Under the pieces are notes generated by a model that was given only the letters and a program-made list of their open reading frames with translations, searched no databases and had not been told where the DNA came from. 64,000 nt of DNA. Origin: Patescibacteria group bacterium (GTDB lineage Bacteria > Patescibacteriota > Patescibacteriia > UBA2591 > JAQUPP01). Positions 1 to 64,000 of this stretch are shown in pieces; positions within the stretch are counted from its first letter, which is position 1; every line of letters begins with the position of its first letter. Position numbers and translations under genes: made by a program. The DNA lies in the NCBI GenBank assembly GCA_028716665.1, contig JAQUPP010000001.1:555073-619072 (forward strand), in the 5' to 3' direction.

Positions 1-3000
1 GCCGGACAAGTTGGTTTATCAAAACCGGAAGAAACAATTACGGAAAATTTTTCCAGCACAACCAAGCGCGATGCCGCTCAAACTACGGCTGATTGGAATA
101 GCGGTACCAACGAACTTACTTTAAAGAAAACAATTACGCCAAGGATAGTTGGTACTTATGATACTCCGGCTACTGCTTATGATGTGGCGATTTCCGGCAA
201 TTACGCGTATGTGGTGGATTATAATCAAGGCTTAGAAATTTTTGATATTTCCACCCCTAGTACTCCGATTTTAAAGAGTAAATTAACCAGCGTAATGGAT
301 GCTTATGGTATTACTATATCAGGCAATTATGCATATATAGCCGGTAATGATTGGGGTTTTTGGATCGTTGATATTTCAAATCCTTTAAGTCCAACCTTAG
401 TTAAACGATATTATCCATGGGGCAGTAATACTTTAAAAGTGGATGTTTTAGGTAATTATGCTTATATAGCTCATGGTGGTGAAGGTTTAAGAATTGTTAA
501 TATCACAGATAGAAGCAATCCTTCAGAAACAGGTTTCTATGACACAACAGGTTCTTGTTATGATGTTAAAGTGCGTCAAGTCGGCGGAAATATTTATGCC
601 TACGTGGCTGACGGAGCACCCGGGTTATTGATTTTTGACGTAACCAATCCGGCCAGTCCGGTTCTTCTTGATACTCTTGATACTGAAAATGCCCGTGATG
701 TTTATGTTTCAGGTGATTACGCTTATGTCAGTGATGGAAATTATTTTAGAATTCTTGATGTTTCTACACCGTCTGATATTAAAGAAAAAAGTATTATAGA
801 TACTTTGGATGGCACTGAAGGAATTGATGTCAGCGGCAATCGCGCTTATCTTGCCAGCCATTCTTATGGAGTGCAGATTATTGATATTACCGATAAATCA
901 AATCCAAGTAAAATATCAATGGTTGATACCCCTCAATATCTTACTGATGCTAATAATTCCGCTTATCAAGTTGCAGTTTCCGGCAATTACGCGTATGTGG
1001 CAAATGGGAATAATATTGGACTCGTGGTTATTGATGTGAGTGAACCGTTTTCGCCGAATTTTTCCGAAAGTTTAAAAACTTTATCCGACAGCCAAGGCGT
1101 TTATGTCTCCGGCGATTACGCGTATATGGCTGAAGGTTATCAAGGACTTCATATTTATGATATAACCGGTGATACGCCAAGTTATGTCGGCAGTTATGAT
1201 ACACCCGGTTATGCTCGCGATGTTTATGTCAGCGGCGATTACGCTTACGTGACAGACAGTGATTGGGGTTTGCAAATTATTAATATTTCTATTCCTTCTG
1301 CGCCAAGTTTTGTCAGTTGGTATAATACTCCGGGTACTGCTTACCAAGTCGTGGTTGATGGTGATTACGCGTATGTAATTGATGCTACTACTTTGCAAAT
1401 TATAAATATCAGCAATAAAGCTTTATTAACCTTAACCGGTTCTTATAACTGTCCCGATAATGCTTATGGTTTGGATAAAGTTGGAAATTATGTTTATGTA
1501 ACCGGTTATGGTCAAAATCCAAGTTTTTCCGCGGTAAACGTAACCAATCCGGCCAGCCCTACATTAGCCGGTTCGTATAATGGCAGCGAATATGGCAATC
1601 AAGCTTATGATGTTAAAGTAAAAACAGTTGGCGCTTCAACTTACGCCTTTTTAGCTTCTTATAATTATGGTTTTCAAGTTTTAAATATTACTAATTTAGG
1701 TTCTATCTCTCGCGCTACTTATTTATATAGTACAGAAACGAGTTATGGTATAAGACTATTCCTGTCCGGCAATTATGCTTATCTTGCAAATGAAAGAGGA
1801 GGATTGGAAGTAATTGATATTTCTAATCCGGCCGCAATAAATCGCCAGCAAAAAATAGACGTACCTGATTATGTAATGGATGTGATGATTGACGGAGATA
1901 ATGCATATATGGCTGCGCGTTCTTCCGGACTTCAAAAAGTTAATATTACTCGGCCGGCTTCATTGTCTTCCACGCCAACCAGTGATTATGGTCGTGAAGT
2001 TTTTGTCAGCGGCAACTATGCTTACATGGCGGAAGAAACCAATAGCAGTTTAAGTATTTTTGACATAACTGATAAAACCGCGCCGGTATTTTTATCTAAT
2101 AAAGATTTAGCAGGCACTTATTGCAATGATGTTAAGGTTGTCGGCAGTTACGCTTACGTTTCCTGTTATGACGCCGGTCTTTATATTGTTGATGTTTCCG
2201 ATCCGGCCAATCCTGTTTATAAAGGCGTTTACAATACACCGAGTTATGCTTATGAAGTAATAGTTGACGGCAGTTATGCTTATGTGGCTGATTACACCAC
2301 TTTGCAAATTATTAATATTTCTGATCCGACAAATCCAACGCTTACAGGTTCATATAATTGTTCCGATTATGCTTATTATTTGGACAAAGTCGGCAATTAT
2401 GTTTATATAACCAGCTATAATCAAAATCCAAATTTAACAATAGTTAACGTAACTAATCCGGCCAGTCCGACTCTGGCTGGTTCTTTATATCAAAATGATC
2501 GTCAGTTAAATGGTATTAAGGTTAATGGCAGTTATGCTTACGTGGCCTATAGTGCTGCTTCCGGCGGAGTGGCAGTTTATAATATTTCCAATCCGGCTTC
2601 TATTTCTAAAACTGGTCAATGGGGTTTGAATGATTCAACAACCAATAGCAGTTTTATTACTTATAGCAATAATAAAGTTTATTTGTCAGCCGGCACCGGG
2701 GGTTTGCATGTGGTTGATGTAACTACGGCGGCCACTCCTGCTTATGTCGGGACTTTTGATACCACCAATACCGTGCGCGGCAGTTATATTTCCGGCAATT
2801 ATCTTTATTTTTCAGATTACATAGGCGGATTGAAAATTTTGGATATTTCACAAACCATGGGAGCGCCAACTTTGGAAGGTTCTCTCGACACGCCCGGCAA
2901 TTCTTATCGTTTGGATAAATTGGGCGATTATGCTTATGTGGCGGATTACAGCGGTGATTTAAGAATTATCAATGTTTCCAATCCGGCTTCGCCTTCGGCA

Positions 3001-6000
3001 ACCGGCAATCTTTCTTTAACAGGCAACAGTTATGATGTTAAGGCAAAAGTTCAGGGCAGCAAAACTTACGCTTATGTTGGAACAGATCAACTCGGACTTC
3101 AGATTGTAGACGCGACTACGCCGGCCAGTCCTACATTGGCGAACTCGGTTAATATTGGAAGCAATATTTATGGAGTTGAGCTTAACAATAATTATGCTTA
3201 TTTGGCCAGTGATACCGGAGGTTTAAATATCGTTGCTATTGGTGGGACAAATGGTTCGGATTCTGCGCAAGAATCTTCTGATAATGAAACTTTTCCATAT
3301 AAAAAATCAATTGCTTTGACCGGAGCCGGCGACGCCAGTACGAATTATCAAATTATGGTTAAGGTCGGTTATAGCAGCGCCGCAACAGGAGTAAATTTAA
3401 CGTGTTCCGGTAATTGTCAAGCCGATTTTGACGATATCAGATTTTATGATAATGACGGTGTGACAGAACTTGATTATTTTAAAGAAACATACACTTTGGG
3501 TGATAAAGCCACTTTTTGGGTGGAAGTAAAAGATAGTTTGTCCAGCGGACAAAACCCGACCATATATATGTATTATGGCGACAATGATGCCAGCACCACT
3601 TCCAGCGGCGCCAATACTTTCCCGTTATTTTTTGATGATTTTACCGGCACAACAATTGATACCGGAAAATGGAGCGAAACAGATACATCCAGTAAAATCA
3701 GTCAAAGTGATAAAATTGTTGTTACCGGCGGCGCGGGTTGGGGAAATACCAGTTTATACAGTGTGAGTGATTTTGCCAGAGCTGATAATTTGGAATTATT
3801 ATTTGATTATAAACCGACTGGCGGAACTTCTGTAATGTTTGGTTGGAAAGATAGCACTTCCGGCAAGAGCTATACGGATTTAATTTATTCTTTCTATGAT
3901 ACTAGTGATACAAATCGTATTTACGAAGACAATGGTGACAGAGGACAATTTTCCGGTGGTTGGATCGCCAATAACACTTATAAAGTCAGAATGCCGTTGA
4001 AAACCGGTGGCGGAGCAAAATATATGCGCAGTACTGATGGCGGACGAACATGGGTATTAAATTATGATTCTTCGTATTCCACTGAAGCGACTGAAAAAAT
4101 CGGTTTTATTAATTCTGATGCTGCTTATGAGATTGATAATGCTTTTATTCGTAAGGTTTCTTCTGCTGATCCGAAAATAAATAATTATATTTATAATGCC
4201 GGCGGTTCTGATTTAACAGAGCAAGCTTCGGGTAACGGAGATTTTCCATACAAAAAAACCATTGGTTTATTGGGCCAGGGTGATGCGGGAACGAATTATC
4301 AAATTGAAATTAAAGTTGGTTATGCTCCTACAACCAATGGAGTTAATTTAAGTTGTTCCAGCCATTGCCAAACTGATTTTGACGATATCAGATTTTATGA
4401 TAATGATGGTACGACCGAATTGGATTATTGGCGAGAAACTTATACTGCTTCTGATCAGGCCACTTTTTGGGTAGAAGTTAAAGATAGTTTGTCAGACGGT
4501 GAAAATCCGAATATTTATATGTATTATGGAAATGAAACGGCGGATACCGCTTCTAATTCCGCTAATACTTTTACTGAAACAAATCCTGACACATTTGATG
4601 TGGGAAGCTGGCACATGGAAGAAGGTTCTGGATCTACTACTGACGATGCTTCTGCTAATAGTAATACAGCCACTATTAATGGCGCGACATGGACTTCATC
4701 TGGGAAATTCGGGAACGCGCTAGACTTTGATGGAGCTGATAATGTCAGTGTTCCTTCAAGTTCTGAATTAAGCCCAACAGACGCGATTAGCGTGGAATTT
4801 TGGATTTATCCAAAGGGTCGTTATTCGGATTGGGGAAATATTATTTATAAATCAGGCAGTTATGGTCTTAATTGGGAGGGTTGGAATGCAAGAATGAGGT
4901 GGACAATAGGCGCAAGTTGCGGCGGCAGTTGGGGTGGAGGAGGTCTCCCCACTTTAGCCTATAATACCTGGACTCATGTCGTGGCCACTTATGATAAAAA
5001 TTTACCCAGCAATCAGATGAATATGTATTTTAATGGTGTTGTTGGCGAAACTTTAACCTGTACTAATGCTATTCCTGTTAATTCCAATGCTCTTGTAATG
5101 AAGATTGATAACAATATTCCTGTGGATCAATCAGAAAGATTAGATGAAGTAAAAGTTTATAATCGTGCTTTATCTGCCGATGAAGTTTCATCTTTATATA
5201 ATTATAACTTAATTAGAACTCGTAAGTCTTCTTCTGTTGATCCGGAAGTGGCTAATACTATTTCACCGTTTACACCCGAAATAATCAGTTCTTTTGATAC
5301 GCCGGGTAATGCTTGGGATGTGAAAGTGAAAACTATTGGCGCTGTAACTTATGCTTTTGTGGCAGATTATTCCGGCGGCGGATTAAGAATTATCAATGTA
5401 ACCGATCCTGCCAATCCGGTTGAAGTTTCATCAATCGGTTCCGGAAATACTTTTAGATCAGTTGATGTTGTTGGTAATTATGCTTATTTGGCTCTTGAAG
5501 GCAGCGATCTTTATATTTATGATATTTCCAATATAGCTGTTCCTTTTTTTGTCGGTAATTACAGTATAGTAAATTATGAAGCTTACGATATACAAGTTAT
5601 CAGTAATTATGCTTATTTGGCTAACAGACAAGGAGGTTTGTATATAATAGATGTCAGTAATCCGTATCGGCCGGGCATGGTCAGTCAATATAACACTTAT
5701 CCGGATTATACTTGGGGGTTGATTGTTGAAGGGGACTACGCTTATTTGGCTACTTATACTACTGGTTTAAAAATAATTGACTTAGGTGATTTATCACCGC
5801 CGGTTCAAGTTTCAACTACAATGGCAGTTGGAATTAGTAATGCTCAAGATGTGGCGGTTTCCGGTAATTATGCATATGTGGCGGAATACAATTGGGGATT
5901 AATAGTTATTGACGTCTCAAGCACAAGTACACCAAGCATTGTCGGGTCAGCTCAATCTTTTGGTAATCCATATGCTATTACAGTGGACGGCGATTACGCG

Positions 6001-9000
6001 TATGTGGCGAGCCAGAATAGAGGTTTGGAAATATTTGACATTTCCGATCCGACAGCGCCGATTTTAACCAAATCTTATATTTGGACGGGCAGCGGTTCGG
6101 TTTATGATATTGAAGTAATTGGCAATTATGCGTATCTTGCCAATTATACTTATGGTATTAAAATAATTGATATTACTGATAAATATAATCCACTTTTAGT
6201 CGGCAGTGCAGGCGTAAGTGGAAGCGCAGCCGGTATTGATATACAAGGTGATTATGCTTATGTCACAGACTATGGTGCTTATATGCATATTTTTAATATT
6301 TCCAATAAAACTTCGCCGCAATGGATAAGCAGTTATAATATTACCGGAGGTCAAGGCTTGGTGTGGAGAATAGCTGTTTCCGGCGATTATGCTTACGTGG
6401 CTGACAAAGGATATAATTTATATATTTTTAATATTGCCGACCCATATAATATCGCGCTTGTCGGCACTCTTGATTCTGACATATCAGGACAGAGTGACAG
6501 GGGTGCTTTAAATCTTTTTGTCAGCGGTACGCGTGTTTATATTGCGGATTACACTCGCGGTCTGCAAGTAATTGATATCAGCGATCCGACTGCTCCTTAT
6601 ATTTTATCTTGCATTGACAGAGTTAAAGATAATCAATTGTGGGCTGGAGCTTATTTTGGCGGAGTTATATCTGTATCTATCTCCGGACATTATGCTTATT
6701 TGATTGACACTTTAAGGGGTCTTTGGATTGTTGACCTTGATCAATTATCAGAAACACCGGCAGTGAATACTGCCAGTGGCGGTTATGTGACAGATATAGA
6801 AGTGCAAGGAGATTATACTTATGTTTTGGCGAATAGCAGTGCCGGGAGCGGTTCAACGGCATTTTCTGTTTTATCAATTTTTGATACCAGTACCAATCCG
6901 GCCACTTTAAAGAGTCGAATAAAAATTTATGATGCTTTGGGGATAACGGTCAGTGGTAATTATGTTTATGTGGCAAATCTTGGCAAGGGATTATTAATTA
7001 TTGATGTTTCAAATAAATCTGCTCCGCAGGGAGTCGGCGTTTATGATTCAACCGGTTCTACTTATGACGTGGCGGTCTCAGGAAATTATGCATACTTGGC
7101 GGATTATTCCGGCGGATTTAAAGTAATTGATATTTCTACTAAAACCAGCCCGGTTTATAAGACAGTTATTAATACAGGTGTCGCAACCCAGAGAGTTCAA
7201 GTAAAAGGCAATTATGCTTATGTGACTGATGCCACTACCGGTTTTCATATTATTAATATTACCACCCCCACTTCGCCTTCAGAAACAGGTTCAACTTTAC
7301 CGGTCAATGCTCATTATGACTTCTTTGTTGAAGGAAGTTATGTTTATGTCGGCGACAATACATCGGGTCTAACAATATACAACATTTCCAATCCGGCCGC
7401 GCCTTATTTGGTTGGTACTTATGATACCATGGGTAATGTTTATGACGTAAAAGTTTCCGGCGGATACGCTTATATCAGCGATTATGGCGGCGGACTTTTA
7501 ATTTTGGATGTTTCAATTCCTTCATCGCCGGCTTATGTTGGTAACTACATCAGCAAAAGCTCAACTTACAGACTTTTTGTCAAAAGGAATAAAATATATT
7601 TGGCTACGCAATATCACGGCGTGGAAGTTATAAATTTAAAAACACAAAATTCAAACGTTGTTTCAACCGGACTTGATACTTTGGCTGCTCCGATTTTAAA
7701 AGGTTCTTTAACCGCCACTGACACTGAGCCGACCGGCACTTCTATTACTTATTATTTAAGTGTTGATAACGGCACTACTTGGGAGGCAATTACGCCTGAT
7801 GGCAGTGAATATACTTTTACCGCTTTTGGTTCTGATTTAAAATGGAAGGCGGTTATGACCACTGATGATTCAACAATAACTCCAACTATTTCTCAAGTTG
7901 TAATTTGGGCTTCAACCGGAATGAGCAATACCGGTTATCTTATTTCTTCGGTTTTTGAGCAAAAATCTCCAAATTTTGCTTGGGAAACCATAGAATGGAC
8001 TGACAACGAAATACAAACTACAAGAGTAAAAGTTCGTACTGACGAGACTGCCGATATGGCCACAGCCACGACTTGGACAAATTGTCCATACGCGGTAGAC
8101 GAAGGCGATCTTGGCGATTTATCTTCTGTTTCCTCAACTCAACCTTATATCCAATATCGTCTTGAATTCGCCACTTCGGATATTGATGAAACTCCGATTC
8201 TTAGCGATATTGATATAACCTCAGCGGTTTATGCCACCGCGACTTATGATTATAGTCAAACTAATCCGGTTGGTTGGTATCACATTGATTGGGTTAATTC
8301 CGGCGGCACAGACACGGCTGTAAAAGTTAGAACTAAAGAAGCGGATACTCAAGAAGGATTAGACGATGATACTTGGAGTGATTGGGTAACTACCAGCGGC
8401 CAAGATATCAGAGAAATGGCCAGTCCGACAAAATGGATCAGGCTTGAAGTTCAAATAGAAACAAGAAAAAATAATGTTTCACCGATTCTGGAAAGTTTAA
8501 GTCTTTTTTACGCGGTCAATGTTACGCCAACAGTCTCAGAAATTTCGGCTCAGGAAAACGAAAATGGAGTGGTTCAAATTTCTTATACAGTTTTAGACGA
8601 GGACAGTGATAGTATTAGCACAACTTTTCAATATTGGGATGGTGATTCTTGGGAAGATTGCGATACCACTACGGGTGAAGGCAGTCATGATGTCACTCCG
8701 GGTTTGCAGACAGAATTAACCGGCACGTGGAATGTAAAAACAGATTATAATAATCAATATCTTGCCAATTCTCGCATTAAAATTATTATTGATGACAGTT
8801 CGCCTTATTTAAATCTTGGCGAAGATCAATCTACTACTTTTGTAATTGATACGAAAAAACCGACTACTCCGACTTTAAGTATTAACTCAGGCGCAGCGAT
8901 TACCAACTCTTTGTTTGTAACTTTAACTCCGGCTTGTGTTGATGACAGTGATTTAAAAGTTCAGTTTTCCAATGATGATTTAACTTATGGCACGGTCACC

Positions 9001-12356: not shown

Positions 12357-12409
12357 AAATTTAGAGGTTGGAAGCCGAATAAATTTTTACTACAAAACCT
12401 TTACCACCT

Positions 12410-52303: not shown

Positions 52304-52442
52304 AAATTAACTTTATAGTATGATAAATCTACTTTTAGTATATCAAAAATATCACAAAAAGAAAAGAGGAAAGAACCCACTTCTATCCCCTTTTAACGCT
52401 TATTTTTAAAATCAATCATTTTTCCGTCCTTAAAAAATAAAT

Positions 52443-53354: not shown

Positions 53355-55200
53355 TTATTTACCCAATCCTTTCATCCATCCGAAAGTCTGTTGGAAGTTC
53401 TTGAAGATAAGTTCGGTTACAGTCAATCTTCTCTGCGGAGTCAGTAAAGTATTGGTCGTTGATTGAGTTTTGTTGCCCGAAGAATCTTCAGAGATGACTC
53501 TGAACCTGTAAATTGAGCCCGGTTTAAAGGAAGTGATAACCATTAGATGTTCTTGTCTTAAACTGATATCTTTAGCCATTTGGATAATTGGAGTGTCATT
53601 AGCAAAGCCGACTTGATATTCAACTTGCGAAGTTGATACTTCATTGGTATTCCAGGTAATGATAGTTTGGACTTCGTCGCCTCTTGATGACAAAGCGATT
53701 GAGGTTCTGATTTGCGAAATGATTGGCGCGTTTTTGTCTTTGGTGGTGGTGAAGTTTGGAATCAGGAAAGAATAGTTATTGCCTTGTAAATCTTTTCCTT
53801 CAAGAGAGACATTAAAGGTCGTGCCCGGTTCAAGATTTTTGACTGTAATCTCATGAGTAATACTGGAATCAGATTTGCTAACTACTTGAACTTCATTTGG
53901 AGATAATTTGTTGTTGCGATACGGAATGTATTTCACTTGCGAATCAGTCGGGATATTTGTCTGCCAAACAAAAGTGGCCGCTCGTTCAGAGATGTTTTTA
54001 ATTGAGAAATTTGTCACTTCGGGCAATTGCGAAGCAGTGGTGAAAGTATATTGTTTAGATCTTGTTTCAGAACCGATAATGCTCTTTGATCGAATTTGGA
54101 AATAGTAATCAGTAGAAGGAACCAAATTAATAATGTTGACATTATGCGCTAATTCATATTCGCTTGATTGACCAACCACTTGCGAATACGGTTCTGATTT
54201 GGTTTTATCAAAATCAGCAACCTTGGTGATAGCGACCACACTATTTGCCTTTCTATCAGTCGTCCATTTAACTCTTGCTTCAGTGGCTGATATTTCAATG
54301 CCTGGAGAACCCTCTAATATCGGACCGGGAATAAATCCTTTAAAAATATTAGCGAGTTCTGTAAAACCATTTTCGGCAACAGACAAAGAAATAGTACTGG
54401 AAACTTTTTTAATCATTTCCATTGCCGTCGTAAATGTTTCTTGAGAAACTGTTTGTTCTTCAATCTTTTTTATCTCTTGCGCTTTTTCTTCCGGAGTTTT
54501 TTCCGCTTCCGGTTCTGTAATTTCTTCATTTTCTGTTATTTCCGGAACAGGAGGAATTACCGAACTTCCCAAAGTTGTAAAAATCAAATCAGCGCCTTGA
54601 GCGAGATTGCCGGAAGCGTCTTGGGACAAGACTTGATAATGATAGACAGTGGCTTTAGTTAAACCAGAAAGAATAGCTTGATGAGAAGTTACAAAAGATG
54701 ATAAACCGGCATGCTGAGTGTCAGTATAGGTTGAGGTTAAACCATAATCTATTAAACTATTTGCATTTTCATTAGTGACCCAGCTGATTGTGGCACTATT
54801 TTCAGTAATATTAGAAGTTAAAATATTGCTGATTATAGGGGTTGTTTTATCTATTAATGTTGCAGAACTGCCTCCTCCTCCGGCATTAATCACTCTTACT
54901 TCCTGAGAAACATATTGAGGCGTGAGAGTATAATCTTGGCTGACGGTTTCAAGATCAGCTGAATTTTTTGATTTGATTCGATAATGATAAACCTGTTCAC
55001 TGATCAAGTCGGTCAAACGAACCACATGTTCGACGGTTAAAGTTGAGTTCAAAGTGGTTGAAGTTCCGTAAGCAGTGGTTGAGCCATATTCAATTTGAGA
55101 AGTGGCCAAATCATCGGTTGTCCAGGTGATTGTGCCGATTGTTTCCGTGGCGTAAGAATTGACCTCGGAAATAACCGGAGCGGTAGCATCTACCGGCTCT
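53355..55200 (-). repeat. Conserved 3' gene module, copy 2 of 3
   Basis: See the copy at 10075..11928. Boundaries are approximate. Confidence 0.7.
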
Positions 55201-58200
55201 GCTTCTTGAGTGGTGATAAAATTATAATCGCCGGAAACACTTTCATTATCATTTGCGTCTTTAGATTTTACCCTGAAATGGTAAGTTCTGTCAGTGGTCA
55301 AATCTGTTAAGTGAATAACGTGTTGAATGGTTAATTGAGAATCAAGATCGGTTTCCGTGCCATAATCGGTGGTAGTTCCATATTCCAATTGGCTGGTTGA
55401 TAATTCATCTGTTTCCCAAGTAATAGTGGAAGTGTAAGCGGTGGCGGATGAATTAACTAAAGAAATTACCGGATCAACTTGATCATCGGCGGTAGTAAAA
55501 TAATAATAACTGCCTTGATTATTATCTTTAGCTGTATTTTCTGAAACATCTGTTGACTCAACATAAAAATAATAAATTACATTCGGATAAAGACCGGTTA
55601 AATTTATAACATGAACAGTGTTTAAAGTTTCATCTGTTTCTTGCTGAGGATTGCTTAAATTTGAAGTAGTGGAATAAACCACTTTGGAATCAGAAGCTGT
55701 ATCAGTAAGCCATCTGACGGTAACTTTTTCATTTACGACGGAAGAAATAATAACATTGGAAATAATCGATCCGGCTTTAGTTATAAACGAATAATCATTG
55801 GACTTAGTTGTTTCATTTTCGGCCGCGTCTTTTGATTTAACCCTGAAATAATAAGGAGTATTTTTAGATAATCCGGTTAGAACAACCGAATGACTTGTTA
55901 CCATTGAAGTGGAATTTTTACTTAAAGAATAAACTCCCGGAGTGGCCGAATATTCCACGGTGGAATCGGACAATTCGTCAGTGGTCCAAGTAATAGTCGC
56001 TTGATTTGTAAAAATAGAAGCGCTTGGCACTTCAGGAGTTGAAATAGTCGGACCGGTTAAATCTCCTTCGCGGGTTGGAGTAAATGTATAATCCGCGGAA
56101 ACGCTTTCATTATTATTCGCGTCTTTTGAATAAACTCTGAAATGATAAGTGGAACCGACAGTCAAACTGCTTAATTTGATAACGTGATCAATGGTAAGGT
56201 CGGTTGTTGTTACCGAGGACGGACTTAAAGTTCCGTAACCATCCGTCAAACCGTATTCAACCTGGCTGGTGGCCAATTCGTCAGTTTCCCAAGTAATAGT
56301 GGAAGTGTAGGCCGTGGTAGACGCGGAAACTTCATTAATAATCGGCGGAGTCAAGTCATAGGTGGTATTAAAAAAATAATAATCAGAGGCATTGTCATTA
56401 ATGCCGAGATTGATAGAAATATCATAAGATTTAACATAAAAATAATAGCGAGTGCCGGGCGTTAAAGAAGAAATTTCCACTGAATGTTCATAATAATCTT
56501 CGCTGTTCGGAGTAAGAACTCTGGTTTCCGTGCCATGCGTTAAAGAACCGGATAAATCTGAGCTGGTGGAATAAACAACATAAGAATTTGAAGAAGTATC
56601 CGTGAGCCAAGTAATTTTTGCCGTACTATTATTAATTTGAGAAACAGAAACATTTGTCAAAGTTGGACCGGGAAGTGTCGTAAAAGTATAATAAGCATTG
56701 GAATGATTATCAACGGTTTCATTATTGCTTGGATCTTCTGATTTTACCAAAAAATAATATGGAGTGTCTTGCGTTAAACCATTTATGGTAAGAGAATGCG
56801 ATGTTCCCATGGTCGGAAGATTGACATAAGTAAAAGTTTCTAAAACTTCAGACGTGGAATAACCGACCGTTGAATCCGAAAATTCATCCGTTGTCCAAGT
56901 TATAGTTGCTTGAGAAGTATAAACATCAGTAGAAGTAACATTGGAAACAGTCGGCGCCGTAATATCAGTGCCTCCCCCGCCTTCACCGGAATCTTGAATG
57001 CCATTTGCCTTGCCGGTAATGGCATTGGAACGATAAGAAATATTATTTAAAGAATCATAAGCGATAATTTTATAATAATGGAGAACATTATAATCCGGCG
57101 TAGTGTCCGTATAATAATTGGTTGTCTTAACATTAACCGTGCCGACTTCCGTAAAATCAGCGTCATTAGTAGTATTTGAACGCAAAATGGAATAATGATC
57201 AAATATTCCTTGAGGCGGATCATCTATTACTTCCCAGGCAATAAAAAGCCGATATTCATTGGGCGTAATTCTGACATTTGAAGTGTCTTGGGTCATAATG
57301 CATGCCGGAGTTGCCGGAGTAATTACTGACGCAGTGGCGGAAACATTTCCTTTGGCGTCTTTAAATTTAACATAAACAGTATCCGGATTATCAGCCAAGG
57401 TGATTGTTGAAGCAGTGTTGTATGTTTGATAACTTGCGCCGGAAAATCCGCTGTCCAAAGAAATCATCATAGAGCCCTTGACGCCGGATTGCATCGTGCT
57501 GTCGGTGGCAGACAAGGTTAAAGTTGCCGCGTTAGAACCGTATTGTGTTGAAGCATTAACTTTAATACTTGGGCTGGCCGGATTTATTGTGTCTAATTCA
57601 AAAGTTGAAGATTCCAAAGTGGCGGTGTTGTAAACCAATTCAAGATCATTGGCTGTAACTTTAATTTTCATTCCATTGGCAGTGTATTGATTATTGTAAT
57701 CTGTTTTTGGATCCCAAGTGCCGGTGTAAGTCGTCCAATCAGTAGCCGGAGAAGTAGCCACATTTTTTACTCCTTCACCGGTTGTAGTCGTTGCTTCTTG
57801 CCATTCATCTCCATCCCAATATTGAAAAGAAATTGTTGCTTTGCCCTGATGGGCTTCTTCACCATCATTGGTATCAGTATCGCGGACTTGATATGAAATA
57901 TTTACCAAGCCATCCGCGCCTTGCGAAGCAGTTAAAGTTTGAAGTTCAGGAGAAGCATTTATTGAATAACTGACAGTAAAATCGTTAATTGTCGGACTTG
58001 TGCCGTCAATCGTACTTTCTAAATATGCTTCTGCTTCGCACCAGCGATTAATTCCTGAAGTAATATCGGCCGGAGAAGAAGTGTACCAATCTGACCATGA
58101 AGCTCCGGATAAACCGCCTTCAGTGGCAGCAGTACGAGTTCTGAATTTAACCAAAGTACCGGAAGGAACAGTCGCGTTCCAAGAAATTGTATTCCAACCG

Positions 58201-61200
58201 GCATCACCGCCGGCATCTTTTTTAAGATTAGTAATGTTGCCGAAATAAAGAAGAGGATAATAATAAAAATCAGTTGTACCTCCATGTAAAGCATAAATAT
58301 TTGTTCCATCATAAGCTAAAGCACCGCCGTCATTAATTGCCACGCTTGTTGAAGATAAGGTTGACCAAGAATTGCCGGAAATATTATATTTGTAAAAATT
58401 AGAAGTATTTCCTCCGCGCAAAGCATAAATATTTGTTCCGTCATAAATTAACGAACCGCCGGCTCCAACCGCACCGGTAATGGAAGTCATAGCACTCCAA
58501 GAATTTCCGGAAATATCGTAACGATAAAAATCCGTGCTGCTTCCGCCGCGCAAAGCGTAAATATAATTTCCTGCTCTTACCATTGCTCCGCCCGCGCCAA
58601 TCACGGCAGAAGGTTGGGCTAAAACTTCCCAGCCAAGCGAAGAAAGACTTATGGAATTTGAACCAGAAGATAAAGTATTATAATCATTTAATGTGCCGGA
58701 AGAATTATACCAATTGGTATTGTCCGGAGAAAATTGAAGTTTAAGAACAGAATCAGCCGGAATTGAAGAAGCGTTGTAATCAAAAGAATCAACACTGCCC
58801 TTTAAGCCAGATAAAAGATTAGTTGAAGTTAAAGTGCCGGAAGAATAATAATATGGAGAATACATGTTGTCTATATAGAAAGTATTATCCGCGTCGGCAT
58901 TAACTATGGTAATCACCATACTGTCTATCGCGTCTTTATTGGCATTAGACACGGCTGATATATCCCAAGAAACTGTTTGAAAAACATTTGCCGAAGTAAT
59001 ATTGGGCGTAATTTCCGTAGTCGTTCCGCCAGAATCATGCATGCTTATTTTTATATTGCTTCCTGTTCTTGTAGAACGAATATCAAAATAAATTAATGAT
59101 TTATCGGTTAAATCTATTGTCGGCGAAATTGTGCGAGTAAGAGTTTTATTTAAACTGCCTGTTATCGCCGCTGATCCTTTTAACGCGTAGGTTCCCTGAG
59201 ATTTAATTGTAGATTCAGAAGATGACTGTAAAGAAAGAAAATCTGAAGTTAAACATCTTATTACCACTATTCCTGAACCTCCGGCACCGGCAGCACCACC
59301 ACTATAAGCACCGCCTCCACCACCGCCGCCGGTATTTGGCGTTCCTGATTGAGCGACAGTATCATTACAAGTTCCGTTTCCACCTCCGCCATTGCCACCA
59401 AGACCAGGATTATTTGAATAAGCAGTTCCATATCCGCCGCCTCCACCGCCGCCAGCATAATAAACATTAGTTCCGCTTAATACTATGTCATATGCAAGTC
59501 CAACTCCTCCGCCGGATGTTCCTCCTTCACTCCTTGATGTGCTTCCTACAGCTCCAGCTCCGCCGCCACCGCCGCCGGTAAAAGGGTTTGCATAATAAAG
59601 ATCAGAAGAACCTCCTCCATTATTTCCTTGACCAGAAGTGCCTGCTCCACCGGGAACTAATTGATAGTTACCTTCTTGTCCGCCTCCACCTGAACCACCA
59701 CTTTTAGGAAGTCCCCACGTGCTAGCTCCGCCGCCGCCTCCACCGCCTATTGCAGTTTTTGTACTAAAAACAGAATTTTCGCCATTTCCACCAGCGCTAT
59801 TGCCACCCGTAGGTCCTTTGACACCGCCAGCGCCAACTGTAATAGGATATGCTTGCGCGGTAATTGCAAAATTTGCGTCATAAATTAAACCTCCTCCTCC
59901 ACCGCCGCCAGACATTCCTTGACCACCTCCACCACCGCCGGCAACTACAAGAGTTGCTACATTAGCAGCTTTTGTAGAAGTAAATGTTCCTGATGAAGTA
60001 AATTTATGAACAGTATAATTTCCATTTGTAGTTATCGTTCCACCGGTATTGCCATAAGTGGCATTTGTTACATACGCCGCTTGAGCAAGTGAATTGGAAG
60101 AATATTCCATATAATCAATAGTTACTGCCGATGTATCAAGTTTTATTTGGCCATTTCCCGCGTCAATAACAGTATTTGATTTACTGGCCACTTTGGTTTC
60201 ATCGGTAAAACTATCAGAAACAGAACTGCCGCTATTATAATTAATGGCAATACTGTCCAAAAGCGGAGCGAGATTTTGAGCCGGATTTGATTGAAGAGTT
60301 GTTTTGTAATAAAAACCCGCGCTTCCTGTCCAAAAATTTTCACTGATATCATATCTATAAAAATCAGCAGTGCCGCCGCCGCGCAAGGCATAAATATATG
60401 TTCCGTCATAAGTTAATGAACCGCCGGTTCCAACTGTACCAAGAACAGAAGTCATTGCACTCCAAGAATTTCCGGAAATATCGTAACGATAAAAATCTGT
60501 TGTGCTTCCGCCTCTTAAGGCATAAATATATGTTCCGTCATAAGTTAAGGCTCCTCCTGCGCCAATTGCGGCTGTAACAGAAGTCATTGCACTCCAAGAA
60601 TTTCCGGAAATATCGTAACGATAAAAATCCGTGCTGCTTCCGCCGCGCAAAGCGTAAATATAATTGCCGACTCTAACTGATGAACCGCCGGCACCAGTTG
60701 CACCGGTTATGGCAGTTAAAGATGACCAGACACTGCTAAACGCTGCGTCTGATAATTTAATATCGCCCTCTGAAGTAGTTGTGTCTAATTTTGTTATCGT
60801 CCCTGCTTCCCAATTAGCCTTGGAAGTTACTGTCCAATTATAAGTTGCCGCTTTGGAAAAATGAGGAAAATATTGAACGCTGTTTGTAACAATCAAACCA
60901 ATACATAATGTTACGGCAATAATTCGGCTGATGCCCAATTTTACCAATGATTGGCGGAATTGTTTTTCTAAAATAAAAAATCGCTTTTGTAAAGCAATAA
61001 ATTGTTTTTGCAAATCAAAATATTTTTCTTTCCAATCTAAATTCTCCGACGCTTCAGTCGGAGCCCCGACCCTTCGGCGTCGGGATTTTATTTTTATCGG
61101 CTCGGTTGAGACGATTGATTTTATATACCAACCCGAATAAATTTTTTTGCAAGATTTATCTTTTTTTATATGAATTAAATAAAAAAATCTAAATTCTTTT

Positions 61201-61295
61201 AAAAATTTAGATAATAAAATACTTCCCTGTTTATAAAGGTAAATTAAAATTTGTCTCAAATTTTCTTTTTTGAGGTTCATTTGCCGCTTATTCAA
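53355..61295 (-). CDS. Giant surface protein (2646 aa): N-terminal basic tail and TM anchor, two Kelch-type beta-propeller blocks, a glycine-rich domain, a long Fn3-like array, and the conserved C-terminal module
   Basis: 'GNYIYALRGGSSTDFYRYDISGNSWSAMTSV' Kelch-like repeats occur twice in three-repeat blocks. 'LVVAGGGGGGQGMSGGGGGGG...GSGIVVIRC' is a glycine-rich domain. Many 'YYF.VKSKD' Fn3-like units. The C-terminus is near-identical to ORF1 and ORF3. Confidence 0.8.
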   Translation of the reverse strand: MNKRQMNLKKENLRQILIYLYKQGSILLSKFLKEFRFFYLIHIKKDKSCKKIYSGWYIKSIVSTEPIKIKSRRRRVGAPTEASENLDWKEKYFDLQKQFIALQKRFFILEKQFRQSLVKLGISRIIAVTLCIGLIVTNSVQYFPHFSKAATYNWTVTSKANWEAGTITKLDTTTSEGDIKLSDAAFSSVWSSLTAITGATGAGGSSVRVGNYIYALRGGSSTDFYRYDISGNSWSAMTSVTAAIGAGGALTYDGTYIYALRGGSTTDFYRYDISGNSWSAMTSVLGTVGTGGSLTYDGTYIYALRGGGTADFYRYDISENFWTGSAGFYYKTTLQSNPAQNLAPLLDSIAINYNSGSSVSDSFTDETKVASKSNTVIDAGNGQIKLDTSAVTIDYMEYSSNSLAQAAYVTNATYGNTGGTITTNGNYTVHKFTSSGTFTSTKAANVATLVVAGGGGGGQGMSGGGGGGGLIYDANFAITAQAYPITVGAGGVKGPTGGNSAGGNGENSVFSTKTAIGGGGGGGASTWGLPKSGGSGGGGQEGNYQLVPGGAGTSGQGNNGGGSSDLYYANPFTGGGGGGAGAVGSTSRSEGGTSGGGVGLAYDIVLSGTNVYYAGGGGGGGYGTAYSNNPGLGGNGGGGNGTCNDTVAQSGTPNTGGGGGGGAYSGGAAGAGGSGIVVIRCLTSDFLSLQSSSESTIKSQGTYALKGSAAITGSLNKTLTRTISPTIDLTDKSLIYFDIRSTRTGSNIKISMHDSGGTTTEITPNITSANVFQTVSWDISAVSNANKDAIDSMVITIVNADADNTFYIDNMYSPYYYSSGTLTSTNLLSGLKGSVDSFDYNASSIPADSVLKLQFSPDNTNWYNSSGTLNDYNTLSSGSNSISLSSLGWEVLAQPSAVIGAGGAMVRAGNYIYALRGGSSTDFYRYDISGNSWSAMTSITGAVGAGGSLIYDGTNIYALRGGNTSNFYKYNISGNSWSTLSSTSVAINDGGALAYDGTNIYALHGGTTDFYYYPLLYFGNITNLKKDAGGDAGWNTISWNATVPSGTLVKFRTRTAATEGGLSGASWSDWYTSSPADITSGINRWCEAEAYLESTIDGTSPTINDFTVSYSINASPELQTLTASQGADGLVNISYQVRDTDTNDGEEAHQGKATISFQYWDGDEWQEATTTTGEGVKNVATSPATDWTTYTGTWDPKTDYNNQYTANGMKIKVTANDLELVYNTATLESSTFELDTINPASPSIKVNASTQYGSNAATLTLSATDSTMQSGVKGSMMISLDSGFSGASYQTYNTASTITLADNPDTVYVKFKDAKGNVSATASVITPATPACIMTQDTSNVRITPNEYRLFIAWEVIDDPPQGIFDHYSILRSNTTNDADFTEVGTVNVKTTNYYTDTTPDYNVLHYYKIIAYDSLNNISYRSNAITGKANGIQDSGEGGGGTDITAPTVSNVTSTDVYTSQATITWTTDEFSDSTVGYSTSEVLETFTYVNLPTMGTSHSLTINGLTQDTPYYFLVKSEDPSNNETVDNHSNAYYTFTTLPGPTLTNVSVSQINNSTAKITWLTDTSSNSYVVYSTSSDLSGSLTHGTETRVLTPNSEDYYEHSVEISSLTPGTRYYFYVKSYDISINLGINDNASDYYFFNTTYDLTPPIINEVSASTTAYTSTITWETDELATSQVEYGLTDGYGTLSPSSVTTTDLTIDHVIKLSSLTVGSTYHFRVYSKDANNNESVSADYTFTPTREGDLTGPTISTPEVPSASIFTNQATITWTTDELSDSTVEYSATPGVYSLSKNSTSMVTSHSVVLTGLSKNTPYYFRVKSKDAAENETTKSNDYSFITKAGSIISNVIISSVVNEKVTVRWLTDTASDSKVVYSTTSNLSNPQQETDETLNTVHVINLTGLYPNVIYYFYVESTDVSENTAKDNNQGSYYYFTTADDQVDPVISLVNSSATAYTSTITWETDELSTSQLEYGTTTDYGTETDLDSQLTIQHVIHLTDLTTDRTYHFRVKSKDANDNESVSGDYNFITTQEAEPVDATAPVISEVNSYATETIGTITWTTDDLATSQIEYGSTTAYGTSTTLNSTLTVEHVVRLTDLISEQVYHYRIKSKNSADLETVSQDYTLTPQYVSQEVRVINAGGGGSSATLIDKTTPIISNILTSNITENSATISWVTNENANSLIDYGLTSTYTDTQHAGLSSFVTSHQAILSGLTKATVYHYQVLSQDASGNLAQGADLIFTTLGSSVIPPVPEITENEEITEPEAEKTPEEKAQEIKKIEEQTVSQETFTTAMEMIKKVSSTISLSVAENGFTELANIFKGFIPGPILEGSPGIEISATEARVKWTTDRKANSVVAITKVADFDKTKSEPYSQVVGQSSEYELAHNVNIINLVPSTDYYFQIRSKSIIGSETRSKQYTFTTASQLPEVTNFSIKNISERAATFVWQTNIPTDSQVKYIPYRNNKLSPNEVQVVSKSDSSITHEITVKNLEPGTTFNVSLEGKDLQGNNYSFLIPNFTTTKDKNAPIISQIRTSIALSSRGDEVQTIITWNTNEVSTSQVEYQVGFANDTPIIQMAKDISLRQEHLMVITSFKPGSIYRFRVISEDSSGNKTQSTTNTLLTPQRRLTVTELIFKNFQQTFGWMKGLGK
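58270..60740 (-). repeat. Two near-identical nucleotide blocks (about 58270-58620 and about 60330-60740) encoding the Kelch-type repeats
   Basis: Roughly 55-nt stretches such as 'ggaaatatcgtaacgataaaaatccgtgctgcttccgccgcgcaaagcgtaaatataatt' recur exactly at about 58508 and 60616. Confidence 0.6.
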
Positions 61296-61367: not shown

Positions 61368-63210
61368 TTATTTACCCATACCTTTCATCCATCCGAAAGT
61401 CTGTTGGAAGTTCTTAAAGATGAGCTCGGTCACGGTCATTCTCTTTTGAGGGGTCAATAAAGTATTGGTTATTGATTGAGCTCTATTGCCCGAAGAATCT
61501 TCAGAAATGACTCTGAATCTGTAGATGGATCCGGGTTTAAAAGATGTAACAACTATTAAATGATCCTGTTTTAAAGTGATATCTTTGGCCATTTGGATAA
61601 TTGGAGCGTCATTGGCAAAGCCGACCTGGTATTCAAATTGAGAATTTGCGGGTTCATCAGTATTCCAGGTGATAATGGTTTGGACTTCATCGCCCCTTGA
61701 TGATAAAGCAACCGAGGTTCTGATTTGAAAAATGATTGGCGAAGTATTATCTTTAACAGTCGTAAAATTCGGGATCAGGAAAGAATAATTATTTCCTTCC
61801 GAATCTTTTCCTTCAAGTGAAATATTGTAAGTAGTGCCGGGCGCGAAATTTTTAATCATAATTTCGTGAGTAGTGTTAAATTCTGATTTATTGACGGTCT
61901 GCGCTTCGCCTGAAGATATTTTATTATTGCGATACGGGATATATTTAACTTGAGAGTTGGTAGGAATATTGGTTTGCCAATCAAAAGTGGCGGCTCGCGC
62001 GGAAACATCTTTAATGGAAAAAGTGATTACCTCCGGCACTTGCGAAGCTGTTTTAAAATTATATTGTTTGGATTTTGTTTCAGAACCGATCAATCCTTTG
62101 GAACGAGTTTGGAAATAGTATTCAGTGGACGGAGTCAAATTAATAATTCTAACGCCATGCGTCAATTGATGTTCATTTGATTGACCGACAACTTGCGAAT
62201 ACGGTTCTGATTTATTTTTATCAAAATCAGAAGCTTTAACAAAAGCAATCATTGAATTGGAACGCTTATTGGTTTCCCATCTGATTATGGCTTCGGTCGC
62301 GGAAACTTCAATGACAGGATTTTTTTCAATGACCGGTCCGGGAGTAATATCTTTTAAAGTATCCAAAATATCTTGAAAAGCGCTTTCCAAAACCGGAGCG
62401 GTTACTTGAGAAGAAAGACTTTTGGCTTCTTCCATGGCGGTAATAAAATTCTGATCCACGCTATTAACGGGTGTTATTACTGTTGATTCTCCCTCTCCTT
62501 CCGAAGAAGTTGGAGTTGAAGGATTTTGATTTTCTGGTGTCGGAGTAACCGGAATTATTCCACCCAAAGTGGTAAAAATAGCATCGGAACTTCGTCTTAA
62601 ATTAGAAGAAGAATCTTGAGACAAAACTTGATAATGATAAACAGCGCCTTTTGTCAAATTAGAAAGAGTGACTTGATGAGTCGTAGCTAAAGTTGACAAA
62701 CCGTCATGCGCGGTATTGGTATAAGCAGCGGTTAAACCATAGTCAATCAAACTGGTGGCTTTTTCATCGGTTGTCCAAGCAATAACAGCGCTGGTTTCTT
62801 TAATATCAGAAACTTTAATATTACTGACAATAGGAGGAATCTCATCTTTAATTGTTGTACTGCCGCCGCCGGCATTAATCACTCTGACCTCCTGAGAAAC
62901 ATATTGAGGTGTGAGAGTATAATCTTGACTGATGGTTTCAAGGTCGGCTAAATTTTTTGATTTGATTCGATAATGATAAAGTTGATTAGAGGTCAAATCA
63001 GTCAAACGAACCACATGTTCAACGGTTAAAGTTGAATTCAAAGTGGTCGAAGTTCCGTAAGCAGTGGTTGAACCATATTCAATTTGAGAAGTGGCAGAGT
63101 CATCCGTTTTCCAAGTGATCGTGCCGATTGTTTCCGTGGTATAAGAATTAACCTCTGAAATAACCGGAGCAGTAGCATCTACCGGCTCTGCTTCTTGAGT
63201 GGTGACAAAA
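61368..63210 (-). repeat. Conserved 3' gene module, copy 3 of 3
   Basis: The tail 'TNTLLTPQKRMTVTELIFKNFQQTFGWMKGMGK' and the preceding three Fn3-like domains are shared with ORF1 and ORF2. Confidence 0.7.
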
Positions 63211-64000
63211 CTGTAATCAATTGAGGTTGATTCGTTGTTGTTCGCGTCTTTGGACTTGACTCTGAAATGATAAGTTTGATCATTGGTCAAGTCAGTCAGA
63301 TGAATAACATGTTGAATTGTTAATCCGGAATCAATATCTGTGATTGTTCCATAATCAGTGGTAGATCCGTATTCCATTTGGCTGGTTGCCAATTCGTCGG
63401 TTTTCCAAGTAATGGTGGCCGTGTAAGCAGTGGCGGCCGAAGAAATGCTGCTGATTACGGGCGCGGATTGATCATCAGCAGTGGTGAAATAATAATAGAC
63501 GCCTTGGTTGTCGGAACGGCTGACATTGTCCAGAGCATCCGTTGATTCCACGTAAAAATAATAGATAACGTTAGGATAAAGACTTACCAAATCCACCGAA
63601 TGAGTGGTGGTTAAAACCGCGTCTGTCTTGGTTTGAGGATTTGAAAGATTAGCCGAACTTGAATAAACAACTTTGGAATCTGAATTTGAATTAGTAGACC
63701 ATTTGATGGTTGCTGTTTCATTAACCACACTGGCCACATAAACATTTGAAATAATTGAACCTAATTTAGTAGTTAAAGAATAACCGACTCCGCCATTATT
63801 ATCAGTTTGAGTATTGGTTGAAAAATCAGTTGACTTGACTCGGAAATAATAAATAGTGCCCGGAGTGAGATCAGTGATGACCAAAGAGTGGCTGATAACC
63901 ATTGAAGTGGAATTTTTGCTTAAAGAATAAACTCCCTGCGTAGCTGAATATTCCACGGTTGAATCGCTTAACTCATTGGTGGTCCAAGTGATTGTCGCTT
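61368..64000 (-). CDS. Giant surface protein paralog, 5'-truncated by the window edge. The visible portion is Fn3-like array plus the conserved C-terminal module, collinear with the C-terminal 870 aa of ORF2.
   Basis: The visible 862 aa align end-to-end with the ORF2 C-terminus. The frame remains open to nt 64000 and the track's Met at 63956 lies inside an Fn3 domain. Confidence 0.75.
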   Translation of the reverse strand, partial: ATITWTTNELSDSTVEYSATQGVYSLSKNSTSMVISHSLVITDLTPGTIYYFRVKSTDFSTNTQTDNNGGVGYSLTTKLGSIISNVYVASVVNETATIKWSTNSNSDSKVVYSSSANLSNPQTKTDAVLTTTHSVDLVSLYPNVIYYFYVESTDALDNVSRSDNQGVYYYFTTADDQSAPVISSISSAATAYTATITWKTDELATSQMEYGSTTDYGTITDIDSGLTIQHVIHLTDLTNDQTYHFRVKSKDANNNESTSIDYSFVTTQEAEPVDATAPVISEVNSYTTETIGTITWKTDDSATSQIEYGSTTAYGTSTTLNSTLTVEHVVRLTDLTSNQLYHYRIKSKNLADLETISQDYTLTPQYVSQEVRVINAGGGSTTIKDEIPPIVSNIKVSDIKETSAVIAWTTDEKATSLIDYGLTAAYTNTAHDGLSTLATTHQVTLSNLTKGAVYHYQVLSQDSSSNLRRSSDAIFTTLGGIIPVTPTPENQNPSTPTSSEGEGESTVITPVNSVDQNFITAMEEAKSLSSQVTAPVLESAFQDILDTLKDITPGPVIEKNPVIEVSATEAIIRWETNKRSNSMIAFVKASDFDKNKSEPYSQVVGQSNEHQLTHGVRIINLTPSTEYYFQTRSKGLIGSETKSKQYNFKTASQVPEVITFSIKDVSARAATFDWQTNIPTNSQVKYIPYRNNKISSGEAQTVNKSEFNTTHEIMIKNFAPGTTYNISLEGKDSEGNNYSFLIPNFTTVKDNTSPIIFQIRTSVALSSRGDEVQTIITWNTDEPANSQFEYQVGFANDAPIIQMAKDITLKQDHLIVVTSFKPGSIYRFRVISEDSSGNRAQSITNTLLTPQKRMTVTELIFKNFQQTFGWMKGMGK

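Follow-up and report, generated by a model that had tools for sequence, protein, structure and literature searches.

Giant secreted paralogs of a Patescibacteria group bacterium share a conserved C-terminal module with patchy gene conversion

A stretch of 64,000 nucleotides (nt) from an uncultivated Patescibacteria (CPR) group bacterium (GenBank assembly GCA_028716665.1, contig JAQUPP010000001.1, positions 555,073 to 619,072), hereafter the window, has a G+C content of 36% and contains three very long open reading frames (ORFs) with related 3' ends. An ORF scan placed their stops at 11928 on the plus strand (ORF1) and at 53355 (ORF2) and 61368 (ORF3) on the minus strand. ORF1 (1..11928, +) encodes a giant secreted protein in which Pfam recognized LVIVD propellers, DUF2341 and LamG, followed by an Fn3 stalk and a C-terminal module. 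Its frame 1 is open from base 1, indicating that the gene is cut at the left edge of the window, and in a 100%-identical public contig (L039) it encodes 4737 amino acids (aa). ORF2 (53355-61295, −) is complete, with 2641-2646 aa and its own leader. ORF3 (61368..64000, −) is a tandem paralog of ORF2 with an Fn3 stalk and the C-terminal module; the right edge of the window cuts it so that only its 3' 877 codons are present, and its ortholog in a related contig (L016) is open past 1379 aa. The 41.4-kb interior between ORF1 and ORF2 (11949..53323) was annotated by Pfam as metabolic and housekeeping genes, namely genes for TsaD-like and translin-like proteins, Rpe, Fmt, transketolase, an NAD-salvage cluster, GltX, an M23 peptidase, an FtsQ-like protein, a P-type ATPase, YchF, a PIF1 helicase, an S66 peptidase and a PPIase. 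We think it probable that the three giant genes belong to a family of secreted paralogs, each built of a leader with a transmembrane segment, a variable head, an Fn3 stalk and a conserved C-terminal module, that this family is shaped by selection, patchy gene conversion and head replacement, and that the inverted placement of ORF1 relative to ORF2 and ORF3 is incidental.

ORF2 begins with a leader (60838..61295, −) that contains a basic N-terminus and a transmembrane or signal-anchor segment. This leader is common to a further paralog found in relatives, gene Z (41-50% aa identity), and is 70% identical to that of an ORF2 ortholog in a metagenome contig (L018). It is followed by a variable head of ~2.9 kb (57982..60837, −) with a Kelch propeller and a Gly-rich domain, which is replaced in L018, and by an Fn3 stalk (55209..57981, −) with nine Pfam Pur_ac_phosph_N/fn3 stretches, which is conserved with ORF3 and the ORF2 orthologs. 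The shared 3' region of ORF2 (53355..55208, −), recognized by repeat scan, blastp and identity windows, comprises an Fn3 repeat designated patch A, a linker and the C-terminal module. The stalk of ORF1 (8272..10077, +) consists of beta-sandwich and Fn3 repeats and has only distant homology to that of ORF2 (31.6% over 869 aa by blastp; ORF1 aa 2697-3500 versus ORF2 aa 1033-1827). The Pfam family PF16656 matched 6-9 stretches per protein, with 128.8-213.1 bits and above the gathering score. The ORF1 ortholog in L010 begins with a K-rich leader and a transmembrane segment.

The shared 3' region, or cassette, is ~1.85 kb long and extends over about 10075-11928 in ORF1, 53355-55200 in ORF2 and 61368-63210 in ORF3. 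The encoded C-terminal regions are homologous by blastp (all E = 0), with 60% identity over 883 aa between ORF1 and ORF2, 56% over 893 aa between ORF1 and ORF3 and 69% over 885 aa between ORF2 and ORF3. As stated in the original prediction, which had been made from the bare DNA sequence, the ORF1 copy is inverted relative to the ORF2 and ORF3 copies (inverted repeats I1-I7 of the repeat scan), the 41.4 kb of metabolic and housekeeping genes are bracketed by inverted copies, and long protein stretches are 100% identical, the longest runs being 68 aa (ORF1/ORF2), 21 aa (ORF1/ORF3) and 34 aa (ORF2/ORF3). It had also described the 3' ends as near-identical, with roughly 90% nucleotide identity. 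Their homology is clear, but across the whole cassette the three pairs showed nucleotide identities of 0.73-0.75 and aa identities of 0.69-0.74, with 0.97-1.12 synonymous substitutions per synonymous site (dS) and 0.19-0.21 nonsynonymous substitutions per nonsynonymous site (dN). The cassette dS of ~1 is twice that of orthologs (0.50-0.67). Nucleotide identities of 88-97% were confined to patches, including 11401-11930 versus 53353-53882 (88%) and one 120-nt window (0.97). The longest exact nucleotide matches measured 53, 49 and 47 nt between ORF1 and ORF2, 42 nt between ORF1 and ORF3 and 35 nt between ORF2 and ORF3.

Plotting identity along the genes had been suggested as a check for a sharp boundary. 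A fairly sharp step was found at ~10078 when ORF1 was compared with ORF2 and ORF3 (from 0.43 to 0.75-0.87 per 120 nt), but identity inside the cassette was mosaic. Patch A (10078..10437, +; ORF2 copy at 54852-55208, ORF3 copy at 62847-63197) is one Fn3 repeat that is alike in all three genes, with 79-88% identity (82-84% in inverted repeats I3/I5) and a paralog dS of 0.35-0.68 versus 0.43-0.64 for orthologs; it is missing from gene Z and from L014. Patch B, the last ~440 nt, is 82-88% identical among the copies. The divergent, paralog-specific middle of the cassette (10783..11127, +) encodes a Pro/Thr-rich linker and a helical segment, for which AlphaFold2 (AF2) predicted two helices with low confidence; here paralogs showed nucleotide identities of 0.58-0.67 and dS of 1.3-1.7, and orthologs nucleotide identities of 0.91-0.92. 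These results showed that the module combines, as a mosaic, old patches (dS > 1) with young ones (dS 0.06-0.6). Upstream of the cassette, the genes had been taken to be completely different. This applies to the heads, but ORF2 and ORF3 are alike up to the window edge (58-84% aa identity per 50-codon window; 70.6% over 1383 aa between ORF2 and the ORF3 ortholog), and the stalks of ORF1 and ORF2 are distantly homologous.

Fairly recent duplications of partial 3' ends, now decaying, with duplication boundaries producing the identity gradient, would fit the tandem arrangement of ORF2 and ORF3, which are similar over at least 880 aa, and the step-like boundary at ~10078 in ORF1. We consider such an origin highly improbable. 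Identity in the cassette is mosaic rather than graded, its segments being unequal in paralog divergence, and relatives carry orthologs of all three ORFs in the same flanking context, at dS 0.4-0.5, indicating that the duplications predate those splits. The module, moreover, is far older than the genus, as described below.

The C-terminal module of ORF1 (10834..11925, +) is ~360 aa long and was modeled by AF2 as two helices, three Fn3 domains and a terminal helix, with a mean predicted local distance difference test score (pLDDT) of 83. The signature of the module is the terminal tail (11863..11925, +), ..TELIFQNFQQTFGWMKGLGK, a predicted amphipathic helix (residues 344-361, pLDDT ~60). The tail carries the motif NFxxTFGWxK, in which N, F, F, G, W and K are invariant in nine sequences down to 34% identity. 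The dN/dS ratio was ~0.2 overall and <0.1 in the tail, where dN was 0.04-0.10. In Pfam and NCBIfam the tail was covered by no model, and an NCBIfam sorting-signal scan gave sub-threshold noise only. Foldseek against the PDB returned generic tandem Fn3 arrays as top matches and nothing informative on the tail.

Homologs of the module at 27-37% identity, with the same architecture, were found as ~500-aa signal-peptide proteins (P0003, P0004, P0007 and P0009) and at the C-terminus of giant proteins of Moranbacteria, Magasanikiibacteriota and other Patescibacteria, for example a 2072-aa Kelch and Fn3 protein from a Magasanikiibacteriota metagenome-assembled genome (MAG). A profile of the last Fn3 domain and the tail was searched against 1.84 billion representative proteins, and the top 150 matches were examined. 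The tail was present in the best match of 107 of these 150, and in 106 of the 107 it ended at most 16 aa from the C-terminus; the 106 proteins with a C-terminal tail range from 780 to 6321 aa (median 2200). The C-terminal module is thus an ancient functional unit, far older than the window's genus. Since it is strictly C-terminal, widespread and followed by ABC/MacB transporter genes (see below), it is a conserved functional module and not primarily a recombination substrate, and the shared gene ends are primarily due to its function. A description of a strictly C-terminal module or of the ABC/MacB neighborhood was found in none of the literature and family libraries searched, which is not proof of novelty.

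Gene conversion between the paralogs was investigated with orthologs of the ORF1 locus (L001, from MAG STD1_195) and the ORF2 locus (L002, from another MAG), which match the window colinearly at ~89% identity, including in the flanks. In a quartet analysis the orthology signal was 35-50 sites versus 0-1 in most of the stalk and linker, and it collapsed in patch A and the last ~150 codons; two windows in the collapsed region gave counts of 3, 1 and 5 and of 2, 4 and 6 for orthology and the two alternative groupings, respectively. A Sawyer-type permutation run test, restricted to synonymous polymorphic sites, detected a run of 16 such sites between ORF1 and ORF2 (p <= 0.0005). The best-supported ORF1/ORF2 conversion tract lies at 11506..11601 (+), with its ORF2 partner at 53682-53777, and exact matches of 47 nt and 53 nt start at 11506 and 11554. 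Over the last ~150 codons, the dS of ORF2 was 0.56 to ORF1 and 0.44 to the ORF1 ortholog, versus 1.04 to its own positional ortholog. In MAG STD1_195, the tail of the ORF2 locus (L003, placed by its PPIase flank) was 95.8% identical to the tail of the ORF1 locus (L001), with a dS of 0.06-0.22 compared with 0.44-0.80 for tail orthologs; L003 was 86.8% and 81.7% identical to the ORF2 orthologs. ORF1 and a fourth paralog (L015) match exactly over ~170 nt and, across 112 codons, have a dS of 0.07. Tails within a genome were closer to each other than orthologous tails in patches only, not across the cassette. These results demonstrated short, patchy gene conversion between paralogs, and the ongoing conversion that had been predicted is seen in the form of short tracts. 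Mismatches between the window and the near-identical contig L037 were rejected as recent conversions, since their bases are not those of the paralogs and they are concentrated at contig ends.

Purifying selection keeps the module similar across paralogs, and short non-reciprocal conversion tracts are superimposed on it. Selection acting alone on a domain inherited from old duplications, with no need of conversion, could account for the low dN/dS and for the conservation of the module across phylum-level distances. Saturation of synonymous sites had been named as an argument against conversion, and synonymous divergence across the cassette is indeed near saturation (dS ~1), but the synonymous sites themselves show identity runs in patches. 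For the ORF2 tail, ORF1-type sequences are also nearer than its own ortholog is, and paralog tails within a MAG reach a dS of 0.06 where orthologs have 0.44-0.80. Selection alone is therefore a most doubtful explanation; the evidence already contradicts it, unless the partial contigs L003 and L015 are chimeric assemblies and codon usage accounts for the tract at 11506-11601. Many short-read contigs end within the cassette, which would be expected of a region with longer exact repeats.

We examined the heads at the ORF2 locus. In a 57-kb metagenome contig (L016/L018), the first 146 aa of the ORF2 ortholog are 70% identical to ORF2 and the last 1570 aa, which correspond to ORF2 aa 1076-2646, are 88% identical, whereas the ~870 aa between the conserved leader and stalk are unrelated to the window head and lack the Kelch and Gly-rich domains. 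The contig L002, which is the same contig as L017 and comes from the same metagenome as L016/L018, carries a window-type head. The window and L002 heads (~57982-60837) are 92-96% identical at the nucleotide level, with a dS of 0.21, and identity drops sharply to 83-90% at ~57880, with a step to 0.86; outside the head, dS was 0.40-0.47 (stalk), 0.67 (cassette) and 0.42 (PPIase gene). These results showed that the ORF2 head is a unit exchanged between lineages. The predicted variable ectodomains on constant ends were therefore correct in spirit, on the evolutionary and the population scale, the head at the ORF2 locus having been replaced over evolutionary time, but no chimera was found among near-identical strains, in whose heads there is one mismatch only, at 60635, inside an internal repeat.

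Over long times, homologous recombination in sequences common to the family has reshaped these loci, and in the conserved leader and stalk it replaces whole heads. The shared leader sequence suggests that such recombination may also move or delete neighboring family members. In L016, copies of the ORF2 leader DNA precede both Z and the ORF2 ortholog, and in the L016/L018 contig a 13-kb block of gene Z with ABC/MacB, L10 and L12 lies between ORF3 and ORF2, whereas in the window ORF3 is directly followed by ORF2. Internal direct repeats also occur in the heads, namely the Kelch-blade blocks of ORF2 (58233-58599 versus 60330-60696, 77-81%) and the DUF2341 module repeats of ORF1 (3388-3578 versus 4339-4529, 80%), indicating that intragenic duplication also shapes heads.

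According to the original prediction, recombination between the inverted cassettes would flip the 41-kb interior, and the locus would act as a surface-variation system similar to pilin or Msp switching. Neither idea was borne out. In near-identical strains and in ~86-90% relatives, all classifiable junctions were parental. On the left side, an ORF1-type stalk with the TsaD-like flank was found in two lineages, the window lineage (L039) and STD1_195 (L001); on the right side, an ORF2-type stalk with the PPIase flank was found in five, the window lineage (L036), the 99.93%-identical strain (L037), L002, L018 and L019. Exact-protein look-ups of the TsaD-like and translin-like genes beside ORF1 gave no match, and the left junction was found via a 498-aa gene. 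In the relatives, the DNA beyond the PPIase gene is unrelated to the window interior, and synteny ends at 52453, ~900 bp outside the cassette, indicating that the 41-kb bracket is particular to this lineage and that the cassette does not contain its breakpoint. An 82-aa GIY-YIG ORF (52443-52691, −) lies between the PPIase and S66 peptidase genes, exactly where synteny with L003, L018 and L019 ends, and this site may be a rearrangement or insertion point unrelated to the cassette.

Pfam detected no recombinase, invertase or tyrosine/serine recombinase in the interior and flanks and no reverse transcriptase domain in the 64 kb, and the repeats found are coding-domain repeats. The repeat scan of the window gave no short orphan or silent cassette copies, all copies being intact giant genes. 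Models involving an invertase, a diversity-generating retroelement or a type I secretion system (T1SS) were rejected by the domain scans. The idea that ORF3 is a head-less silent cassette was also rejected, the frame of its ortholog being open to the edge of the locus. Recombination across the inverted copies would be possible in principle, given exact matches of up to 53 nt in 88%-identical stretches. RecA-dependent crossover depends on sequence identity, and at 73-75% identity with exact matches of at most 53 nt it should be rare. Were a crossover to take place within the cassette, each head would still sit on almost the same constant end, and the protein would be little changed.

A frequent adaptive switch, in which the 41-kb inversion and reciprocal exchange create population-level surface variation, therefore appears very unlikely. 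The inverted homologous arms with their exact matches would allow it, and conversion between the copies does occur, but the cassettes are old, with a dS twice that of orthologs, and recombination inside them would leave the heads on essentially the same end. Different heads at one locus, the presence or absence of the 13-kb Z and ABC/MacB block between ORF3 and ORF2 with leader repeats at its edges, and the frequent contig breaks in the cassette could be read as traces of switching, as could the published speculation on recombination-driven variation of giant Patescibacteria proteins (PMC11809585). However, the head differences are between relatives, and assemblies at 100% and 99.93% identity show a single mismatch in the whole ORF2 head; none of the observed junctions is recombinant, the window contains no silent or promoter-less cassettes, recombinase or reverse transcriptase, and the bracket is not conserved in relatives, where the synteny break lies outside the cassette. 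The inverted geometry of ORF1 versus ORF2 and ORF3 around the 41 kb is incidental and lineage-specific, and is not a programmed switch. The idea of an invertible 41-kb switch, which is more dramatic but unsupported, was removed from our interpretation.

We also considered whether mis-assembly of the metagenome created the repeats or their arrangement, given that the source is of MAG type and that related assemblies fragment at the cassette. Contigs of assembly GCA_028713475.1 are 100% identical to window 5822-22130 (L039) and 45298-60906 (L036), and a contig of GCA_028690995.1 (L037) is 99.93% identical to window 48917-62336. Independent public contigs thus reproduce 15.6 kb and 16.3 kb (100%) and 13.4 kb (99.93%) across both junctions, and the copies differ by ~25% and hence are not collapsed repeats. 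Mis-assembly is therefore extremely unlikely.

The locus is probably best read as an adhesin family undergoing concerted evolution. Silent-cassette systems have one expression site and truncated, promoter-less donors and switch at very high rates. The locus resembles Neisseria pilE/pilS, Anaplasma msp2, Borrelia vlsE and Treponema tprK in that conserved sequence borders the variable surface segments and the molecular process is gene conversion. Unlike in those systems, all copies here are intact giant ORFs with their own leaders, the conversion tracts lie in the conserved part, and the head is invariant in near-identical strains (as judged from consensus assemblies). RecA-dependent recombination between the inverted tufA/tufB genes of Salmonella or between inverted rrn operons can give gene conversion or inversion. 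As in those cases, inverted homologous genes bracket a chromosomal segment in the window, but identity exceeds 98% over 1-5 kb in the tuf and rrn copies, whereas the arms here share 73-75% identity and no exact match longer than 53 nt, and no inverted isoform was seen.

The closest known behavior is that of the bab/hop adhesin paralogs of Helicobacter pylori. In babA/babB/babC, intragenomic recombination and gene conversion in the shared ends homogenize the paralogs and make chimeras (PMC4552749, which cites Pride & Blaser 2002 on concerted evolution). Like the bab/Hop/Hom genes, the genes described here (ORF1-3, Z and a gene upstream of ORF1 in relatives) sit at separate loci as full-length adhesin paralogs that diverge in the middle and are conserved at the ends; as in bab, tails within a genome are closer than orthologous tails (here in patches), and different heads occur at one locus. 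At 8-14 kb, the genes here are longer than those of bab (~2 kb), and their constant end is an Fn3 stalk with a tail module, not a beta-barrel. They show neither slipped-strand repeats nor demonstrated phase variation, no population chimeras were seen in the consensus assemblies, and divergence between copies is much higher (~25% nt).

Giant Fn3/DUF2341 proteins of Patescibacteria and the idea of their reshuffling by recombination are already in the literature. The Patescibacterium danicum paper (PMC11809585) reported proteins of >4000-5000 aa with Fn3 and DUF2341, and its authors speculated on adhesion and on domain reshuffling by homologous recombination. No full-length homologs were found and no evidence of conversion was given in that paper, and the shared C-terminal module and ABC/MacB neighborhood were not described. 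Giant surface proteins are the main candidates for attachment of the ultrasmall, host-dependent Patescibacteria to other cells. The locus gives testable hypotheses on anchoring, through a C-terminal module linked to ABC/MacB, and on host-range change, through head swaps.

The genes that follow the module were examined in relatives. In all lineages outside the window's genus with visible downstream DNA (L005, L006, L034 and L035), the tail-bearing gene is followed by genes for an ABC ATPase (437-444 aa) and a MacB_PCD/FtsX permease (~400 aa), both within ~150 nt, with the ABC start 3-121 nt downstream. In L034, a stand-alone module protein lies between a 6967-aa DUF2341 giant and the ABC/MacB transporter. 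Within the window's genus, the ABC/MacB pair is carried by family member Z (L004, L008, L015, L016 and L021), sometimes with a small response regulator between Z and the pair. Altogether, ABC/MacB directly follows a tail-bearing gene in five separate lineages, and the ABC ATPase, with the Z-type loci included, measures 429-444 aa.

Gene Z combines an ORF2-like leader with an ORF1-like tail. The Z tail (L016 8914-11080) and L014 lack exactly the patch-A Fn3 repeat (window 10083-10456), the repeat that is most similar among ORF1, ORF2 and ORF3, which suggests that whole Fn3 units are gained or lost via recombination between paralogs. Since the Z-type fourth paralog L015 comes from the 99.93%-identical strain, a fourth, Z-like copy almost certainly exists elsewhere in the window's genome. 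Another tail-bearing gene (ending in ..GMGVKF; L010 1-400 and L002 1-126) lies upstream of the ORF1 ortholog in relatives, with its stop ~180 nt from the ortholog's start. ORF1 probably comes second in a tandem pair, as ORF2 does after ORF3, and the family would then have at least five members per genome. The DNA downstream of Z (L016 11192-17264, L004 481-6798 and L008 258-9733) encodes, sometimes after a response-regulator receiver, the ABC ATPase, the MacB/FtsX permease, L10 and L7/L12, and the block ends with a 715-721-aa protein on the opposite strand that has no Pfam match. The embedding of rplJ-rplL among giant adhesin genes is unusual.

Judging from the gene order, the module probably docks or anchors its protein to a MacB/FtsX-type (type VII) ABC complex, and ORF1, ORF2 and ORF3 may use this complex in trans. 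As in the type VII ABC group (MacB/FtsEX/LolCDE; FtsEX with PcsB/EnvC/CwlO), genes for a MacB_PCD/FtsX permease and an ABC ATPase adjoin the gene of a secreted protein in relatives, and the AF2 model of the module contains helical segments that could dock. Unlike in known type VII ABC cases, the partner is an Fn3 module that often ends a giant, the ATPase carries an extra C-terminal extension of ~200 aa, and the association is known from gene neighborhood in relatives, with no transporter copy in the window. The T1SS RTX adhesins differ in that the linked transporter here is MacB_PCD/FtsX rather than an ABC_membrane exporter and that the giants have N-terminal transmembrane/signal segments; RTX/HemolysinCabind had no Pfam match in ORF1-3. 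A module serving as a handle for an ABC complex in trans would explain the strong constraint on the tail and the benefit of alike tails, and one machine for several paralogs would explain why tails are kept alike by selection and conversion. We tentatively propose, as a possibility that is rather less likely than the family interpretation itself, that the module with its NFxxTFGWxK helix is an undescribed sorting or anchoring handle by which one MacB/FtsX-type machine holds, and possibly actuates, several giants in trans, and that heads are exchanged between lineages via the leader and stalk arms, changing host or surface specificity.

Several points weigh against the interpretation given here. 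Contigs L003, L004, L008, L010, L015, L020 and L021 break in the cassette, so that repeat-like stretches are under-sampled, and contig-end artefacts could inflate paralog identities. Public assemblies are consensus sequences in which a minority inverted or chimeric isoform would be invisible. Part of the low dS of the head could stem from codon constraint and not from recent transfer. The ABC/MacB link comes from gene neighborhood only, and the window itself has no such transporter. Finally, anchoring could be the role of the N-terminal transmembrane segment, with the C-terminal module then at the distal tip.

The remainder of the window yielded a few further observations. The NAD-salvage cluster (21187-28319) contains genes for a NUDIX/NrtR-like regulator, a PnuC transporter, a NadR-like AAA_28 kinase, an NAD kinase, NAPRTase and a nicotinamidase-like isochorismatase. 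Gene orientation changes from plus to minus at ~37.3 kb and cumulative GC skew has its maximum at 36-38 kb, the two giant-gene clusters being transcribed convergently toward ~36000-38500, which could be a replication-terminus-like organization or plain coding-strand bias. As a sign of recent inversion, the skew was uninformative: it tracks the coding strand, with its peak at ~38 kb at the orientation switch. A tRNA scan and an Rfam scan of the window gave no match.

A 216-nt intergenic segment (12344-12560; core 12392-12541) is missing at the same position in the relatives L001 and L020, and Rfam at E <= 1 gave no match to it. It folds with a long closing helix (minimum free energy −50.4 kcal/mol, z = −2.06). 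Its core is 94% identical to a segment just upstream of the L10 gene in relatives (L016 13893-14046 and L008 6294-6442). The segment may represent an unannotated L10-leader-like RNA that was copied before the translin-like gene.

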